Below are positions 5,768 to 60,091 of a stretch of DNA of 64,000 nucleotides, in pieces; within the stretch, counting starts at the first letter, position 1, and each line of letters starts with the position of its first letter. The position numbers and the translations under genes were made by a program. A model generated the notes under the pieces. That model saw only the letters and a list, made by a program, of their open reading frames with translations, was not told the DNA's origin and ran no database searches. The DNA is from Leucoraja ocellata (lineage: Eukaryota). The DNA lies in NCBI GenBank assembly GCA_036785375.1, contig JAWMAR010000048.1, forward strand, positions 6,510,001-6,574,000, given 5' to 3'.

Positions 5768-30134
<24,367 letters not shown>

Positions 30135-43717: not shown

Positions 43718-44752
43718 TTAAGTGTACGATAGACTCTCTGTGCACGGATGATGTCCAGAAGACGTTGATCTTTGGGACAAAACCCTGTGGCATTTCCTTT
43801 TGGAGAACTTTGCCTTTTGGTTCCTCAGATACTCTTTGTAATTTTTTGTCAGTAAGGTGTAGAGGAAAGGATTGATGCAGCTGTTGCAGTATGCCAGGCA
43901 AGTCACAAACAAATTAACGATGGCAACTGTGGTGGGAGAAATAGTTGCAGATTCAATGTAGAGATGAAACAATTGCCATACCCAAAAAGGCAAGTAACAG
44001 ATATCATATATTAGGACAATCCCAAAAATCATATAGAGGATTTTCAGCTTTGGTGCCTTTGTCACTTCCTTCCTGCTTTGGGATGTCCAGTAAGTACGAG
44101 CTAACTTTATGTATAAGAATCCAATTAATATCCCTGGAGTCAGTATACAAGTATTAAAAAGCACAGTCAGATAGATTCTGTAAGTATGTTTTGGCCATGT
44201 GGAGCCGCACATGCGTTTTATTGTCCCGTTCTTGGCAAATTCTCTGAGATCGGTCATTATCATCGTAGGAAGGGCAAGGAGAATGGAAACCAGCCATACC
44301 ACACTAATGATGACCCTCCTGTAGCCGTTGTTTTTCCTATACGTCGTCAGGGGTTTCACCACTGCTAAGTATCTCTCAATGCTCATGACAGTCAATATGA
44401 AGATGCTGGCGTGCATAGTCAGGAAGTCCAAGCTGAGCAGGAATCTACAGCCAAGTTCTCCAAAGTACCAGTCCTTCGCAAAGTAGGTGCACACCACAAA
44501 TGGGATGGTGGTGAGGTAGAGGAGGTCGGCCAAAGCCAAGTTTACTATGTAGGTGTACATGGAGCCAGTGAACCTCATGGACAAATTCATCACCACCAGG
44601 ACGTAGACATTGCCTATAACTCCCATCAAACACATGGCGCTCAGAATGGTCCCCAGCAATATTGTCATCAGTTTCTCATTCACTGGGGCTGAAGAGGAAA
44701 AGTTTCCAGTGGTGGACAAGTTACTCTGAGTGCCAACACCTGTCACCTCCAT
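43718..44752 (-). CDS. UTS2R: Urotensin-II receptor family GPCR, intronless CDS, 344 aa (subtype not assigned)
   Basis: Seven hydrophobic segments; NLALADLLYL, GCRFLLSLDFLTMHASIFILTVMSIERY, CYLPFWVWQL, YCNSCINPFLYTLLTKNY are urotensin-receptor signatures. First ATG at 44752 (the ORF track starts at a TTG), in-frame TAG upstream. Confidence 0.9.
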   Translation of the reverse strand: MEVTGVGTQSNLSTTGNFSSSAPVNEKLMTILLGTILSAMCLMGVIGNVYVLVVMNLSMRFTGSMYTYIVNLALADLLYLTTIPFVVCTYFAKDWYFGELGCRFLLSLDFLTMHASIFILTVMSIERYLAVVKPLTTYRKNNGYRRVIISVVWLVSILLALPTMIMTDLREFAKNGTIKRMCGSTWPKHTYRIYLTVLFNTCILTPGILIGFLYIKLARTYWTSQSRKEVTKAPKLKILYMIFGIVLIYDICYLPFWVWQLFHLYIESATISPTTVAIVNLFVTCLAYCNSCINPFLYTLLTKNYKEYLRNQKAKFSKRKCHRVLSQRSTSSGHHPCTESLSYT

Positions 44753-51620: not shown

Positions 51621-52121
51621 GAGAGAAACGAGGAACTGCTGATACTGCTTTATATAAAAGGCCACAAAGTGTTGGAAGAACTCAGCATCTAGCACAACCC
51701 AATGGTAGGAACATTGAATATTCCAATGTTAGGTCAACTCTACAGAATAACCCCCCCCCCCCCCCCCCCCCCCCACTCATACACACAAAACACTCCCTCC
51801 CCTCCGCTTCATTCCCCCGTGGCCTGGTTCCAATAATCTGCCTGTCAAAACCGCCAATCACCTATGTCGACATGACCCCCGCGCCTGGTTCTGCCTCAAC
51901 CCTTGTCCACTTTCCTTCTCGCTGCTACAACCAGTCTGAAGAAGGGTCTCGACCCGAAAGGTCGCTCACCCTTGTTCTCCAGAGATGCTACCTGACTCGC
52001 TGAGTTACTCCAGCACTTTGTGTCCATCTGAAGGGGGGTTTGTGCAAGACAAATCTCAGCATCAAAGCGAGCTCTCACGGCGCCACGGTGGCGAGCTCTC
52101 ACGGTCCCACAGGGTGGAAGA

Positions 52122-53750
52122 ATGTCAGTGAGAAGCAGGGCGTCGTTGCTGGCGCTCCTGCTGGGCGCCGCGCTCTTCTCCTCTGCGGGGAATCGCGGCT
52201 CAGAAGCGGCCAAGATCCTGGCCGTGCCCGCCGACTGGAGCCACTGGATCATCATGAAGACCCTGCTCCTGGAACTGGTGGCGAGCGGGCACCAGGTGAC
52301 GGTGCTGAGGAGCAACGACTCGCGGGGGTTGGAAACAACATCCGAGGATTTCACGCTGGAAACTATCCTGGTGCCGGCAGCTCAGGCGTACAGAGCGCGG
52401 AACGCGAGCGAAATCCGTGACATTGTCTTTAACTCGCTCTACGTGGAAGACGGCTTCCTCTCCAGCCTCGCCGCCGCCCGCAGCATGTATGCCTCACTCC
52501 TCTTTAACAATGAGGTGACCATCCCGGCCATCCGCGCGTTGTTTGACGACCGCGCACTGTTGCAGCGACTGAAGGGAGCAGGGTTTGACCTGACTTTAGC
52601 CGACCCTTACCATGCGGCCGGGGCCATGTTGGCACAGGTACTGGGCACGCCGCTGGTGTTCTTTGGCAGGTGGATGATCACCGGGGATCTCCACTTTAAC
52701 TTGGCTCCGTCGCCACTTTCCTTCGTGCCCGTGGTAAATTCCCGCTTGTCGGACAGGATGTCGGTGTGGGAGAGGATGAAGAACGTGTTGATCTATGGGA
52801 TGTCCAGATTCACAAGTTACTTCTACATTTACCCCGCCTATAACGAGCTGTGTCGGCGTTACCTGCACAGCGACATCACGGTGGAAGAGCTTTATGCCAA
52901 GGCTGACATGGTCCTGATGAAGGTTGACTTTGCCTTTGATTATCCCCGGCCCACCATGCCAAACCTGGTTTACATCGGGGGTGTTCAGTGTAGCGCGGGC
53001 CGCCCGCTCTCTGCTGAACTGCAGCGGTTCATGGACGGTTCTGGGGACCAAGGGGTCGTGATCTTCTCCTTGGGAAGTGTGGTGAGCATCTACCCACCAG
53101 AACTGGCGACTGAATTGGCGGCGGGACTGGCCCGCCTGCCCCAGAGAGTGGTCTGGCGCTTGGTTGGAGACGCGCCATCCACCTTAGGGAATAACACCAA
53201 GGTGATGAGTTGGCTTCCTCAAAACGATCTGCTGAGTCACCCGAAGACCAGAGCCTTCATCACCCACGGTGGGGAGAACGGGCTCTACGAGGCCATTTAT
53301 CACGGCGTCCCTCTGGTCGGCATCCCAGTTTTATTCGATCAGTACGACAACCTTCTGCGCCTCAAAACGCGAGGGGCGGCGATCATGCTGGACTTGGCTC
53401 ATTTAACAAGCGATGTGATCTTCCAGGCGGTGAAGACTGTCATCGAGACCCCTTCCTACGGGGAGAACATGAAGCGAATATCCGCCTTGCACCGGGATGT
53501 CCCGCTGGAACCCAAAGAGCTGGCGGTCTTCTGGATTGAATACACCATTAGGCACCGAGGCGCCGCTCATTTGGGAGCCGCGGGCACTGAGTTGCCCTTC
53601 TATCAGTACTACCTGCTGGATGTCATCGCCATCCTCGTTGCTGTGTCGACGCTTGCCCTTTATCTGGCGTGTAAATTGCTGATATTTTTATTCGTCAAAA
53701 TGCAATCAGTTGGAAGAAGGACAAGGACTAAATTGAAGAAAGTAGATTGA
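52122..53750 (+). CDS. UDP-glycosyltransferase (glucuronosyltransferase family), single coding exon, copy 1, 542 aa; UGT5-like architecture
   Basis: Signal peptide, catalytic SHW His and ADP Asp, signature WLPQNDLLSHPKTRAFITHGGENGLYEAIYHGVPLVGIPVLFDQ, C-terminal TM and KKVD ER-retrieval motif. Confidence 0.95.
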   Translation: MSVRSRASLLALLLGAALFSSAGNRGSEAAKILAVPADWSHWIIMKTLLLELVASGHQVTVLRSNDSRGLETTSEDFTLETILVPAAQAYRARNASEIRDIVFNSLYVEDGFLSSLAAARSMYASLLFNNEVTIPAIRALFDDRALLQRLKGAGFDLTLADPYHAAGAMLAQVLGTPLVFFGRWMITGDLHFNLAPSPLSFVPVVNSRLSDRMSVWERMKNVLIYGMSRFTSYFYIYPAYNELCRRYLHSDITVEELYAKADMVLMKVDFAFDYPRPTMPNLVYIGGVQCSAGRPLSAELQRFMDGSGDQGVVIFSLGSVVSIYPPELATELAAGLARLPQRVVWRLVGDAPSTLGNNTKVMSWLPQNDLLSHPKTRAFITHGGENGLYEAIYHGVPLVGIPVLFDQYDNLLRLKTRGAAIMLDLAHLTSDVIFQAVKTVIETPSYGENMKRISALHRDVPLEPKELAVFWIEYTIRHRGAAHLGAAGTELPFYQYYLLDVIAILVAVSTLALYLACKLLIFLFVKMQSVGRRTRTKLKKVD

Positions 53751-53839
53751 TTGTCAGTGCCAGTCGGTCTATTGATCATTCGGACACTCTCGCACCTCCT
53801 CACACCCATCTCTTGACCATCACCCTCTGTTTAGAAGAA

Positions 53840-54560
53840 GCGGCCTGAAGAAAGGTCCCGACCCGTAGCGTTACCCATCCATGTTCTAAATGCCTGTTCT
53901 AGCACGTTGTGTCTTTTTTTATCTGCAGTTCTTTGTGTCTGCAGTCTGAAGAAGGGCCCCCGACACGAAACATCACCTATCCTCGTTCATCAACGATGCT
54001 GCTTGACCCGCTGAGTAACTTCAGCTTACAAGATTTCAGCTTCTGCAGTTCTTTGTGTCTTCGTTTTATGCCCCATTGCCGAATCTCCTCAAGGTATGCC
54101 TACTTTGAACAAGGGGCTGAAGGAAGGTCTCGATCCGTAACCATCTACACGGATGCGGCCTGTCCCGCTGAGTTACTCCAGCACTTTGTGTCTTTTTATT
54201 TGTAAACCTGCATCTGCGGTTCCTTGTGCCTTCCTTCTGAAGGAGGGCCCCGACCCGAAATGTCACCTTTCCATAGATGCTGGCTGACCCGCTGAGTTAC
54301 TCCAGCACTTTGCGTCCTTCCCACGTTGAAGAGGTTTTCTTCCTAAATCCGGTGAGAGTTCTGTGAGACCCTCTCTCACCCCCCCCCCCCCCCCCCACCC
54401 TCCATGATCCCCGTTGTTCTGCTGTTGTCTCACCGTGTTCTGACCCAGCCTCGCTCCTGCAGCATCGGGACGCGTCCCGCCTGGAAACGTCGCCCGCCCC
54501 CTCTCTCCACAGACGCCGCCTGAACCGCTGAGTTACTCCAGCACTTTCTGTTTTGCTCCA
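53840..54560 (+). repeat. Tandem cluster of 4-5 degenerate Penelope-derived short repeats
   Basis: Repeated ctgaag(a/g)a-ggg...ccc-gaaa...gatgctgcctgacccgctgagttactccagc units. Confidence 0.75.
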
Positions 54561-54868
54561 GTGTTCTTCGTTTGCAGGTGAAGCCGGACCACGGGCTGAA
54601 TTGGTGGTCAAATGCATCATGAAGATTTACTAAAAATAAATTAAACATGAATGCAGAAATGCCATAAAAACAAAAAAATAAAAAATTCAACACATTGAAA
54701 AGATTTGTAGGAACTATTGTTTTTTGACCTCTCTCCCTTACACCTGCCCCTCTTTGCGCTACTGAGGTGACTTGCTGAACCTGTGCCTCGTGTTATCAGA
54801 TGCAGTCTTAGAGTGCTAGATGATTGAGTGGTCGAGTCAGAGTCATGGTCATATAGTCACAGAGTGGT

Positions 54869-55071
54869 NNNNNNNNNNNNNNNNNNNNNNNNNNNNNNNN
54901 NNNNNNNNNNNNNNNNNNNNNNNNNNNNNNNNNNNNNNNNNNNNNNNNNNNNNNNNNNNNNNNNNNNNNNNNNNNNNNNNNNNNNNNNNNNNNNNNNNNN
55001 NNNNNNNNNNNNNNNNNNNNNNNNNNNNNNNNNNNNNNNNNNNNNNNNNNNNNNNNNNNNNNNNNNNNNNN
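54869..55071. other. Assembly gap (203 N) inside a (catagagt)n-like simple repeat
   Basis: Run of N; both flanks are gagtcata-type repeats forming the tail of the minus-strand CR1-type end at about 55140-55400. Confidence 0.97.
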
Positions 55072-56216
55072 GTCCTAGAGTGATAGTCATCGAGTGATAG
55101 AATCATAGGGTTAGTCATTCATAGAATCTTAGAGTTATAGTGATGGAGTCATAGAGTCATACAGCGTGGAAACAGGCCCTTCGGCCCAACATGCCCACAC
55201 CAACCAACATGTCCCATCTACACTTGTCTCATTTGCCTGCGTTTGGCCCAATACCTCAAAGTCTTTCCTATCCTGTCTAATTGTAGCTTAAACGTTACAA
55301 TAGTCCCTGCCCCAACTACTTCCTCTGGAAGCTTGTTCCATACACCCACCACCTTTTGTATGAAAAGGTCACCCCTCAGATTCATATTAAATCTTTCCAG
55401 TGTCACTTAAAAGCACCGTAAATATTCCCCCTCATAAGCCCAGTCGGCAGATATAGCATCAGAATTGGTGCAAAACTGCAGGAGGAGGCTGGCTCCTCGC
55501 CGGGGGGAACCCGACGTTGCAATGACAACGGCAAAGGTCTGTCACCGAGTTGGGAATTCCGTGTGAGCTCATCCTTGTGAGGGAACCCTGGCCTTTCCCA
55601 CAGCTGCACGGGGAAATGCTGGCATCCAGATGTGGAAACGCCGGATTTCCTCCCACACTGTAAAGAGAAACTATGCATAAATGTAATTCGGGATCGTGTT
55701 TATAATTAGTAATGGCCGGGATAAAGCAATGAGCGTTCAAGGGAAGATTGAAGGATTCTAATATCGAAACTACAAATAACGTGTGGTCACAGTGGTCCCT
55801 TGTTGGTCCTTCACGCAGAGGGCTCCACCCTTCCTTGGTCATCTCTTCCCCAGCCAACAATCGACCGTTGTGGGCTCCACCTTTCCTTGGTCATCTGTTG
55901 CCGCCCGGCCCTGCTTTGTTCCTGCCTTTTCTTACCTCCAGTTCCCTCCCCTCTACTTTCAATCTGAAGACGGCACCTGTCTCGAAACTGTCACCCATGA
56001 TGCTGCCTGACCCGCTGAGTAACTCCACCACTTTGTGTTCATCTCCGGTTTAAACCGGCACCTGCAGTTCCTTTCTACACACTGACATTTGACATTTGCA
56101 GACGTTCGGGCTATTTTGCAAGGAGGAGGTCGCGTGTGCAGGAGCGCGCCGTGAGCCCAGCCCAGTGACACAGGGTCACGTCTGTGCTCCACAGATGTAC
56201 CGGTGACAGCAGAGGG

Positions 56217-56230
56217 CCACTGGGGGGCGC
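56217..56230 (+). promoter_or_regulatory. Candidate CTCF site
   Basis: ggCCACTGGGGGGCGCa differs at one position from the CCASYAGRKGGCRS core; lies in a CpG-rich non-repeat block. Confidence 0.45.
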
Positions 56231-56426
56231 AACGGACCTTGTGTCACTCGGCTGGTTCACGTTGCTCCACTGAGCACCCGCCAGTGTAACCAAGTTCGGT
56301 GTATATACACACATTCAACTTTTTTTTTTCGCCCGCTATCTACTATGTTTACATATTCTGTGGGGCTGCAGCAAGCAAGAATTTCATTGTCCTATCTGGG
56401 ACATATGACAATAAAACTCTCTTGAC

Positions 56427-56640
56427 GTGTCTGTGGAATTCTCTGCCTCAGAGGACGGTGGAGGCAGGTTCTCTGGATGCTTTCAAGAGAGATATAGACA
56501 GTGCTCTTAAAGATAGCGGAGTCAGGGGATATGGGGAGAAGGCGGGAACGGGGTACTGATTGGGGATGATCAGTCATGATCACATTGAATGGCGGTGCTG
56601 GCTCGAAGGGCCGAATGGCCTACTCCTGCACCTATTGTCT
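56427..56640 (+). mobile_element. CR1 LINE 3' end
   Basis: LWNSLPQRTVEAGSLDAFKRDID...GYGEKAGTGY plus conserved 3' UTR. Confidence 0.85.
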
Positions 56641-57567
56641 TGATTCTCTTGAGATGTGACAAGACATTGTGAGATCAATTTTAAAGTGACCCGTGCAAAA
56701 CCAAAGCATAATGTTGCTAAAGACTGACACAAAAAAAGCTGGAGTAACTCAGCGGATCAGGCAGTATCTCTGACCCTTCTTCAGACTTCTCCACCCGAAA
56801 CATCACCCGTTCCTTCTCTCCAGAGATGCTGCCTGTCCCGCTGAGTTGCTCCAGCTTTCTGTGTCTACCTTCGGGTTATACCAGCATCTGCAGTTCCTTC
56901 TTGCTCATATTGTTGCTAATATTGTTCAAGGATATTTCATGGCATATTAAAAGAAAGCACATTCCCAGCCAACACACAAGATGCATTCCCGAAGATAGAC
57001 ACAAAGCGCTGGAGTAACTCAGCGGATCGGGCAGTGTCTCTGGAGAACATGGATGGGTGACGTTTCGGGTCGGGGCCATTAGACGGGTCGTCTGCAGAAG
57101 TTCTAAGTTCTAAGTCACCTATCCATGTTCTCCAGATATACTGCCTGACCCGTTAAGTTACTCCAGCACTTTGTAATTTTTTTATTTTGCACCTGTAGTT
57201 CCTTGTTTCTACTCTGTAGAATTCATCCGTGATTGGTTTTAACTGGTCAAACGTTAAACTACAAATGTATTCTGTTTAAGCTGCACTTTGATGTGATGAC
57301 AAGTTGCCTGTTCTTGGCAAATGTTTTAATATTGCACAACTCGGAGCAAGTGTAAACTAGAAATCTGAAGTAGGATCGCACCAGAAACCCATTTATCGCT
57401 TATCCATGTTCCCCAGAGATGCCGTCTGACCCACTGAGTTACTGCAGCCGTTTGTGTACATCTTTGGTATAAACCAGCATCTGCATTTCCTTGCAAGAAA
57501 GGGACAAGAATTTATAGCGCCATAGAATATTCCTGCTTCCTCCCCGTTTGAAATCACCTTAAAAAAA

Positions 57568-57882
57568 AAACCCTGTCTCACGGTGGGAGTCGACCCACGA
57601 GTGACCCCGAGTTTAAAACAAATTAAACTCGTAATCACGTACAATGAACGTAGCGGGAACGTCGGAACTCTTGGACGCAACTTAGCGACTCGTGGCGCCA
57701 ACGGCAGGTACCCGTGAAACTTGTTAACTCTTGAACAATTTCAAACATGTTTAAAGTTTTCCGCGAGTCAAATTTACTCCTGAGATTAAAAAAATTGAAA
57801 CATTTAAACTCGTTGTAAGAACGTAGTGACCCGCGAGTTTACCGTAGTGACTCGTGAGTAACTCGTGGGTTTGGCCCGAGTG
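57568..57882. mobile_element. Harbinger-like MITE (right end eroded)
   Basis: Starts aaaccctgtctcacgg; acccacgagt...actcgtgggt inverted match near both ends; CpG-rich. Confidence 0.5.
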
Positions 57883-58200
57883 CCAGAAGTGAAATGTTGA
57901 AGATTAGTCAGATCTTAATGGAAATTTTTCAGAGAAGGAGCAAAAAGCACTCACCGGGGATCTGAGAAAAGAATGAACCATGCAGTGTGGTGAAAGAATT
58001 TGTAAAACTATTCAATTCGAGTTAATTTCACTTATTTTGCTTATGTAGAAACGACAAATGATTTAATCGGCGGTTCAGCGGGATGTGTTCAGTGGTGGCC
58101 AGTTGATAACTAACCAGGAAGTGTAATTCGATCCCAAAGGTAGGAATAGGTTGGGATACAAACATTTGTTTCCTGGTTGGGATACAAACTTGGTGGAAGA

Positions 58201-59811
58201 ATGTCAGTGAGAAGCAGGGCGTCGTTGCTGGCGCTCCTGCTGGGCGCCGCGCTCTTCTCCTCTGCGGGGAATCGCGGCTCAGAAGCGGCCAAGATCCTGG
58301 CCGTGCCCGCCGACTGGAGCCACTGGATCATCATGAAGACCCTGCTCCTGGAACTGGTGGCGAGCGGGCACCAGGTGACGGTGTTGAGGAGCAACGACTC
58401 GCGGGGGTTGGAAACAACATCCGAGGATTTCACGCTGGAAACTATCCTGGTGCCGGCAGCTGAGTCGCGCAAAACGCGGAACGCGAGCGAAATCCGTGAC
58501 ATTGTCTTCAACTCGCTCTACGTGGAAGACGGATTCCTCTCCAGCTTCGCCGCCGCCCGCAGCATGTTGAGCTTATTCCTACTCAACAAAGGGGTGACCA
58601 TCCCGGTCATCCGCGCGTTGTTTGACGACCGCGCACTGTTGCAGCGACTGAAGGGAGCAGGGTTTGACCTGACTTTAGCCGACCCTTACCATGCGGCCGG
58701 GGCCATGTTGGCACAGGTACTGGGCACGCCGCTGGTGTTCTTTGGCAGGTGGATGATCACCGGGGACCTCCACTTTAACTTGGCTCCGTCGCCACTTTCC
58801 TTCGTGCCCGTGGCAAATTCCCGCTTGTCGGACAGGATGTCGGTGTGGGAGAGGATGAAGAACGTGTTGATCTATGGGATGTCCAGATTCACAAGTTACT
58901 TCTACATTTACCCCGCCTATAACGAGCTGTGTCGGCGTTACCTGGACAGCGACATCACGGTGGAAGAGCTTTATGCCAAGGCTGACATGGTCCTGATGAA
59001 GGTTGACTTTGTCTTTGATTATCCCCGGCCCACCATGCCAAACCTGGTTTACATCGGGGGTGTTCAGTGTAGCGCGGGCCGCCCGCTCTCTGCTGAACTG
59101 CAGCGGTTCATGGACGGTTCTGGGGACCAAGGGGTCGTGATCTTCTCCTTGGGAAGTGTGGTGAGCATCTACCCACCAGAACTGGCGACTGAATTGGCGG
59201 CGGGACTGGCCCGCCTGCCCCAGAGAGTGGTCTGGCGCTTGGTTGGAGACGCGCCATCCACCTTAGGGAATAACACCAAGGTGATGAGTTGGCTTCCTCA
59301 AAACGATCTGCTGAGTCACCCGAAGACCAGAGCCTTCATCACCCACGGTGGGGAGAACGGGCTCTATGAGGCCATTTATCACGGCGTCCCTCTGGTCGGC
59401 ATCCCAGTTTTGGGCGATCAGTACGACAACCTTCTGCGCCTCAAAACGCGAGGGGCGGCGGTCATGCTGGACTTGGCTCATTTAACAAGCGATGTGATCT
59501 TCCAGGCGGTGAAGACTGTCATCGAGACCCCTTCCTACGGGGAGAACATGAAGCGAATATCCGCCTTGCACCGGGATGTCCCGCTGGAACCCAAAGCGCT
59601 GGCGGTCTTCTGGATTGAATACACCATTAGGCACCGAGGCGCTGCTCACTTGCGAGCCGCGGGCACTGAGTTGCCCTTGTATCAGTACTACCTGCTGGAT
59701 GTCATCGCCATCCTCGTTGCTGTGTCGACGCTTGCCCTTTATCTGGCGTGTAAATTGCTTAAAGCTTTACTTATCAAAATATCTTCAGGTGGGAAGAGGA
59801 AATTGGACTAA
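58201..59811 (+). CDS. UDP-glycosyltransferase, single coding exon, copy 2, 536 aa
   Basis: Near-identical to copy 1; ATG at 58201 (the ORF track starts at an upstream TTG); signature ends PVLGDQ; tail KRKLD (KxKxx). Confidence 0.95.
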   Translation: MSVRSRASLLALLLGAALFSSAGNRGSEAAKILAVPADWSHWIIMKTLLLELVASGHQVTVLRSNDSRGLETTSEDFTLETILVPAAESRKTRNASEIRDIVFNSLYVEDGFLSSFAAARSMLSLFLLNKGVTIPVIRALFDDRALLQRLKGAGFDLTLADPYHAAGAMLAQVLGTPLVFFGRWMITGDLHFNLAPSPLSFVPVANSRLSDRMSVWERMKNVLIYGMSRFTSYFYIYPAYNELCRRYLDSDITVEELYAKADMVLMKVDFVFDYPRPTMPNLVYIGGVQCSAGRPLSAELQRFMDGSGDQGVVIFSLGSVVSIYPPELATELAAGLARLPQRVVWRLVGDAPSTLGNNTKVMSWLPQNDLLSHPKTRAFITHGGENGLYEAIYHGVPLVGIPVLGDQYDNLLRLKTRGAAVMLDLAHLTSDVIFQAVKTVIETPSYGENMKRISALHRDVPLEPKALAVFWIEYTIRHRGAAHLRAAGTELPLYQYYLLDVIAILVAVSTLALYLACKLLKALLIKISSGGKRKLD

Positions 59812-60091
59812 ATTGAAGAATTAAGGAGTGATGTGCGGTGACAGGTGAATTGTTGGCAGCTACGTTTGCATTGCACCAGATTTTGCATTCCAATATAACC
59901 ACGGATAACAATCTGCATTTTATTCTCAGATGGCTATGTGGTCAATGTTTCAATGATTCAAAGATGGGTTCTTGTCACATGTAGCCAAGTGCAGTGGAAT
60001 GCTTTATTTTGCATACAAGCCGGTAGAATCATTAAGTAGGCCTCACCTCAGCAGTACAAGTGTCGCTACGTTTTAGCGTTGTCGATTTGCT

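Follow-up and report, generated by a model that had tools for sequence, protein, structure and literature searches.

The evolution of UGT repertoires has been described as a birth-and-death process with a minor part for gene conversion; conversion was not predominant in Ugt1 and Ugt2, with the dog Ugt1a7-a11 group as an exception (PMC1885805). In other families the mechanism is already known. In the mammalian tandem paralogues TLR1/TLR6 an N-terminal ligand-binding part groups by orthology while a C-terminal part of ~300 residues is homogenised independently within each species (PMC2077338), and the Drosophila transporter pair CG18281/CG17637 shows divergence peaks, clusters of locus-grouping sites in a species-grouping background that sit at the same place in sister species (the Teshima-Innan signature; PMC2588116). 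For UGTs we found no report of region-limited conversion in the mainly open literature on ugt5, elasmobranch genes and concerted evolution, and the accessible text of PMC2819257 reports none among Ugt5 genes. Here we describe a tandem pair of UGT genes, A and B, in a 64,000-nucleotide (nt) stretch of the genome of the skate Leucoraja ocellata (contig JAWMAR010000048.1, positions 6,510,001 to 6,574,000; hereafter the window). Judging from sequence comparison, conversion or a similar non-allelic exchange very probably homogenises the two coding blocks around small islands of difference, and this process, when confined to the C-terminal half, is also the likely explanation for a 13-gene array elsewhere in the genome (C79).

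These loci share features with each described system. As in TLR1/TLR6, one region groups by locus and the other by species, between genera for the window pair and across orders for C79, and homogenisation extends to synonymous sites, appearing as a step at four-fold sites in C79 and as only 3 of 225 four-fold sites differing between A and B. Unlike TLR1/TLR6, which are receptors forming one pair, C79 is an array of enzyme genes, and the window pair is homogenised over nearly its whole open reading frame (ORF), with islands on the scale of single residues. The Drosophila pair has a similar pattern of locus-grouping clusters, but here lineages as distant as skate and sawfish have islands at identical residues, and islands are sometimes exchanged. 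C79 resembles the UGT1A locus, in which a variable acceptor-binding N domain with hypervariable regions is joined to a near-constant C domain (PMC1885805). UGT1A, however, splices variable first exons to shared constant exons, whereas A, B and the 13 C79 genes are each a full, uninterrupted single-exon ORF, and the window pair is not of the variable-N kind. Teleost Ugt5 genes share with the window pair a single coding exon, a tandem arrangement and a likely retro-origin, and have shared 5' non-coding exons (PMC2819257). Unlike them, the window pair falls, in a 28-row tree rooted on UGT2 only (no UGT1 row), into a separate old clade with sharks, lungfish, amphibians, coelacanth, bichir, gar and tarpon (support 100/100), itself sister to the named UGT5E/G plus elasmobranch arrays. 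From this placement we class A and B as Ugt5-like; they may be sister to, rather than nested in, the named UGT5 subfamilies.

ORF A (52122..53750, on the + strand like all features of the pair; 542 residues) and ORF B (58201..59811; 536 residues) are uninterrupted and match Pfam UDPGT PF00201 over its full length (E 5e-143 and 2e-144), with the C-terminal UGT signature. A has His41, Asp161 and D406-Q407, a predicted N-terminal signal helix and a predicted C-terminal membrane helix; the catalytic residues of B are the same. A ends in KKVD and B in KRKLD, both of which we take to be dilysine-like motifs; KRKLD is the ancestral tail type, present in rays and sharks too.

Codons 1-519 of A and B align without gaps. 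They differ at 36 nt, 21 of them within codons 88-136. Of the 519 residues 22 differ, and 14 of these fall within the same patch (88-92, 116, 123-126, 128, 130, 131 and 136), a packing into 49 codons that was matched in 0 of 100,000 permutations. A first-pass annotation of this DNA had put these residues, by eye, at about 22 and 14; its seven or so synonymous changes elsewhere are indeed few, at 6, and 3 more inside the patch bring the total to 9. The clustering that it described also stands, although its single patch is really two micro-islands. Island 1 (codons 88-92; QAYRA at 52383..52397 in A, ESRKT at 58462..58476 in B) contains 6 nonsynonymous and 0 synonymous differences. In island 2 (codons 116-136; 52467..52529 in A, 58546..58608 in B), A and B differ at 11 nt within codons 123-131; 9 of these changes are nonsynonymous and 2 synonymous. 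A third small island lies in the C domain, where codons 404-405 read L, F in A (53331..53336), abutting the DQ of the UGT signature, and L, G in B (59410..59415), a change of three adjacent nucleotides. This F/G difference at site 405 separates paralogues in skates, sawfish and stingrays as well. Outside the patch, the N half (3/205 residues) is as homogenised as the C half (5/229), so the variable-N/constant-C design that the annotation attributed to conversion fails for this pair, while it does describe C79. The longest identical tract spans 354 nt (52934..53287 in A, 59013-59366 in B), in keeping with the hundreds of identical bases noted earlier.

The shared block opens exactly 9 nt upstream of the ATG. 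In A this edge (52110..52121, with the block from 52113) immediately follows a CAG at 52110-52112, a putative splice acceptor of the kind that the 5' non-coding exon of Ugt5 genes would call for; in B (58192..58200) there is no AG immediately upstream. Contigs from sequencing runs X1, X5 and X11, representing three other organisms, also start at 52113. RNA run X24, of which ~5% was read, shows zero depth across most of the ORF and ~4 reads at a single site. Upstream of the block, 400 nt of A and B align no better than chance (99 of 1000 shuffles reach the score). At the other end, near-identity stops at codon 519 and a weaker homology persists for ~95 nt (62 of 92 columns alike, a score that 0 of 2000 shuffles reached), through the tails and the start of the 3' flanks (53679..53790 in A, 59758..59860 in B). 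These are ~67% alike, and a one-base frame offset gives A its longer tail. Beyond them the flanks have only dispersed repeats in common, so the earlier statement that the flanks lack visible homology holds for unique sequence with the exception of this 3' stretch. The spacer (53751..58191, no strand) consists of dispersed short repeats with 203 N at 54869-55071, and has no collinear homology to either outer flank. Each ORF is preceded, at the block edge, by its own short direct repeat (52065-52112, 14 nt; 58149-58189, 15 nt). We rejected a retrocopy of one gene beside the other: the 342 nt upstream of B have only 13-nt matches within 144 kb, and no fused upstream exon was found in the 144 kb around the pair.

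Tails only ~67% alike indicate that the duplicate is old. The proportion of synonymous differences (pS) in the backbone, by comparison, is 6/349 (1.7%), of the same order as the flank divergence from runs X1, X5 and X11 (37/3074, 1.2%; 94/3670, 2.6%; and 125/3516, 3.6%, over the listed orthologous pieces with short repeat pieces left out), while the tails are ~33% apart. The nearest proteins all come from skates. L. erinacea has a 542-residue protein 99% identical to A (XP_055507022.1) and a 536-residue B-type protein (XP_055507021.1), with the same patch alleles and tails as window A and B. Amblyraja radiata has six entries (XP_032896128-133), comprising four full B-tail proteins, an N-terminal fragment of A type (P0123) and a C-terminal fragment with an A tail (P0126). 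We compared the window with Amblyraja in quartets, taking P0123 (N part) plus P0126 (C part) as the A type and each of the four full proteins as the B type. In all eight, the 6-7 sites that group by locus lie within residues 85-140 (91, 116, 123-126 and 130), and the 2-6 sites that group by genus lie outside (8, 187, 271, 392, 421 and 489); Fisher p values range from 0.0006 to 0.028, and the quartets share sequences and so are not independent. The Amblyraja-specific residues A8, A187 and M392 occur in both A-type and B-type Amblyraja proteins. In the backbone tree P0126 groups with the Amblyraja B copies (94/86), and in the patch tree P0123 groups with window A and Leucoraja A (93/88); P0045 and P0136 were excluded from both trees, P0123 from the backbone tree, and P0126 and P0129 from the patch tree.

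An old duplicate with a young-looking body, together with this split of sites by locus and genus, is the signature expected of conversion. The first-pass annotation had proposed conversion and is well supported here by the site split and the old tails; moreover, the flanks do not align at an identity similar to that of the ORFs, and the patch and the backbone give different trees. A young skate duplication in which no conversion took place, the patch then changed rapidly under adaptation and the flanks were replaced would agree with all skate copies forming one clade in both trees, with the lack of species-grouping sites between the window and L. erinacea, and with a backbone pS near the order of between-genera divergence. 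We regard it as very unlikely, given that tails and 3' flanks have diverged far beyond the 1-5% seen between skates and that A8, A187 and M392 are found in both types of Amblyraja protein.

Several points weigh against the conversion account. The Amblyraja A locus assumes that P0123 and P0126, which have consecutive accessions and were compared at the protein level, are one gene. Against L. erinacea, the window has 16 locus-grouping sites, 3 of them outside the patch, and 0 species-grouping sites, so conversion is either slow or not visible at that depth; the annotation's expectation of a patch grouping by locus and a backbone by taxon is borne out between genera and is not seen here. The backbone pS of 1.7% is not significantly lower than the 2.6% of X5 (p 0.21), though it is lower than 3.6% (p 0.03), and the 354-nt tract is non-significant inside codons 137-519 alone (p 0.09). 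Finally, all skate patches form one clade (99/97), so that patch alleles are not traceable to loci across batoid orders.

Two further explanations concern the copies themselves. An assembly chimera, or a false duplication of two alleles, had been raised as a danger, and copies that look like false duplications do occur elsewhere in the assembly. Two UGT pairs on contig C26 (6.82-6.85 Mb versus 7.20-7.22 Mb) have 0 codon differences, and C640 carries five genes (L003, L007, L010, L015 and L021) 1-28 codons from C79 genes; all of these are probably false duplications or haplotigs. For A and B an artefact is barely credible: their flanks are unrelated, L. erinacea has both loci, as does Amblyraja radiata judging by tail type, and both island-2 alleles are present at near-equal depth in sequencing runs (16.5/14.8 in run X1, 16/17.5 in run X3), with the shared ORF at ~2x flank depth in X1. 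Mapping of the runs is dominated by dispersed repeats, and most coding differences are not displayed. Contigs of X1 break at codons 404-405. An island-1 bubble is absent from the X1 and X3 contigs, an absence we did not use since small bubbles may collapse in contigs. In X5 the ORF stands at ~5x flank depth and the A tail at single depth, and the island-1 letters encode the residues of the Amblyraja B proteins.

Alternatively, the chimeras and the homogenisation might come from unequal crossing-over, with copies being born and lost, rather than from short-tract conversion. Copy number does vary, with ~5 copies in Amblyraja and ~fivefold depth in X5, and run X11 yields one ORF-long contig plus an apparent A-tail remnant that leaves the ORF near codon 488. 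This account is nonetheless improbable: the window and L. erinacea retain two genes that can be told apart by upstream flank or tail, internal islands between identical stretches require double events, and the C79 array holds both orientations. As a separate observation, X11 and X15 on window positions 57960-60050 suggest that other skates may have lost a copy or exchanged islands.

We next consider why the islands persist. Patch and backbone differences stand at 14:8 in the paralogues, compared with 21:98, 6:18 and 16:48 for three pairs of orthologues (p 3e-5, 0.016 and 0.002), and this excess makes ordinary hypervariability an insufficient explanation. The islands also recur. In a sawfish pair, 14 of 490 sites differ and 4 of these (90, 91, 405 and 421) match sites here (p 0.002; the uniform null used overstates the significance). 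In Pristis, Mobula, Hypanus and two skates, the paralogues include both F and G at 405; G405 is found in sharks, lungfish and most amphibians, and the residue before DQ is F in human UGT2B10 and A in 2B7, 2B15 and 2B17. The protein search returned at least two paralogues in sawfish, Mobula and Hypanus, and one locus each in two catsharks and Heptranchias. In a Rhinophrynus pair (P0014/P0019), 13 of 51 residues differ within 85-140 versus 10 of 394 elsewhere. A Xenopus tropicalis pair of the same clade (P0031/P0247) shows 4/55 and 5/393 in the corresponding regions.

If conversion is real, the islands could still be mechanical and neutral, left by a tolerant helix that drifted until its mismatches came to halt heteroduplex tracts. 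The patch pS of 0.12, rising to 0.34 in codons 123-131 as in the tails, fits such a barrier, as do a ratio of nonsynonymous to synonymous proportions (pN/pS) not above 1 and a region that evolves 1.7-2.6x faster even among orthologues. We nevertheless judge it unlikely: island 1 has six nonsynonymous changes and no synonymous one, the sawfish paralogues differ at the same sites, and the island at 404-405, at three bases, would make a small barrier, yet its F/G difference recurs in four batoid genera. On balance we lean towards islands kept by selection.

Selection on the islands faces difficulties of its own. For the patch, pN/pS comes to 1.30 and does not exceed 1 significantly (p 0.78). Synonymous divergence is higher there too (4/34 versus 6/349, p 0.007), which would equally be expected of a conversion barrier that is neutral. 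Amblyraja P0125 is mosaic, joining an A-type island 1 to a B-type island 2, every Amblyraja protein carries G405 and none F405, and run X15 contains only A-type island 2, on contigs that adjoin B-type flanks (these contigs are mosaics). The pairing of F/G405 with island-1 states in skates is unlike that in sawfish and Mobula, and island 2 is absent from the UGT1A1 pocket residues listed in the available text of PMC1885805. The annotation's claim that selection protects the patch is plausible: the 6:0 changes of island 1 and the excess over orthologues favour it, and the pN/pS value and the exchange of island pieces count against it.

A predicted structure suggests where the islands would act. 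An AlphaFold model built from 112 sequences (mean predicted local distance difference test score, pLDDT, 89.9; an earlier model from a 25-row alignment with pLDDT 44.5 was discarded) has the GT-B fold and superposes on TuUGT202A2 (Z 32.4, root-mean-square deviation 3.2, 415 aligned). In the model, island 1 forms the loop preceding helix 95-106, and helix 112-142 carries island 2. A search of the PDB for vertebrate UGTs returned C-terminal domains only, and among the structure matches the C domains of human UGT2B are 51-54% identical. By offset from the catalytic Asp, UGT2B17 residues 121, 124 and 125 presumably correspond to ~130-135 here; our alignment to sheep UGT2 is gap-free from 126 to 161. 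The UGT2B17 substitutions S121Y/N124S/I125N abolish androgen activity (PMC12807465). The islands may have an acceptor-binding role or may change donor fit, and we hold the chances that the islands alter substrate range to be evenly poised.

Overall, we propose that a single-exon UGT underwent an old tandem duplication and that its coding block has since been repeatedly homogenised by conversion, in tracts that would run from the 5' edge of the exon to about codon 519. New mutations would be overwritten slowly relative to the closest species split and fast relative to the genus split. Selection would probably keep three islands (88-92, 116-136 and 405), which are predicted to confer different substrate preferences; conversions that erase an island would usually be selected against and sometimes fixed, as in the Amblyraja mosaics and the loss of F405. 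We consider this explanation as a whole probable. A third close copy acting as patch donor was sought and rejected, with none in 144 kb or in a genome search (next matches at most 46%, a floor from a stricter first look).

The C79 array (G000 C79:7548000-7864000; 7.55-7.86 Mb) contains 13 full single-exon UGT ORFs in both orientations (L004-L006, L008, L009, L011-L014, L016-L018 and L022), plus broken copies. Between its four N-lineages, four-fold sites differ at 14-27 of 50-53 positions in residues 30-250 (26-52%) and at 3-6 of 110-114 in residues 291-519 (3-5%), with the step near residues 240-270. Such uniformity of the C halves at four-fold, neutral sites excludes purifying selection alone. 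In FastTree phylogenies with 52 public elasmobranch array proteins, N halves join skate, stingray and shark sequences by lineage, and C halves group by taxon. Support trees and approximately unbiased (AU) tests on 27 chosen rows of 69 gave one N lineage spanning sharks and rays (100/97) and rejected a single N clade of skates (p-AU 3e-10). In the C half all 8 skate sequences fall into a single clade (99/99), and a skate-plus-stingray N lineage was rejected (p-AU 4e-5). The AU groups were chosen after the first tree had been seen. Where the C640 copies differ from their closest C79 genes, 44 of 67 codon differences are states of another paralogue, as ongoing exchange predicts. We slightly favour the view that sharks and rays run a splice-free UGT1A design, with a donor half kept uniform by conversion and acceptor halves in at least one lineage predating the shark-ray split; the window pair would then be an extreme case, reduced to a few specificity residues including an F/G switch kept across batoids. 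In the same genome, G000:C7:4648000-4781000 has ~17 tandem matches over residues 29-226 only, with C-terminal pieces at one end. This cluster resembles UGT1-type variable first exons, and the skate may hold both designs.

If correct, these interpretations would establish a second, conversion-based route to a variable-N/constant-C UGT repertoire, and whole-gene trees and orthology calls of elasmobranch UGTs would be misled. The islands would point directly to residues that set substrate choice. A natural pair 98% identical outside ~15 residues is also a ready experiment for mapping acceptor specificity in a vertebrate UGT.

The ORFs are GC- and CpG-rich, as the annotation had stated: GC content at third codon positions (GC3) is 0.72-0.73 and the observed/expected CpG ratio 0.87 in both, compared with a GC3 of 0.41-0.51 in 22 other intronless UGT ORFs examined in the same genome. 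A neighbouring G-protein-coupled receptor (GPCR) ORF gives 0.57 and 0.36, read on the + strand, so that 0.57 is not a codon figure. In C79, GC3 is 0.50-0.53 in C halves versus 0.42-0.47 in N halves, and the C26 pair shows the opposite direction. GC-biased conversion is consistent with these composition data, and no more than that. The GPCR (43718-44752, - strand) is a single-exon rhodopsin-family gene (PF00001), which by its motifs resembles a urotensin-2 receptor. Elsewhere in the window, a GC-rich island at 10900-11450 with a long CAG/GCA-type triplet run is probably the 5' exon or promoter of another gene.

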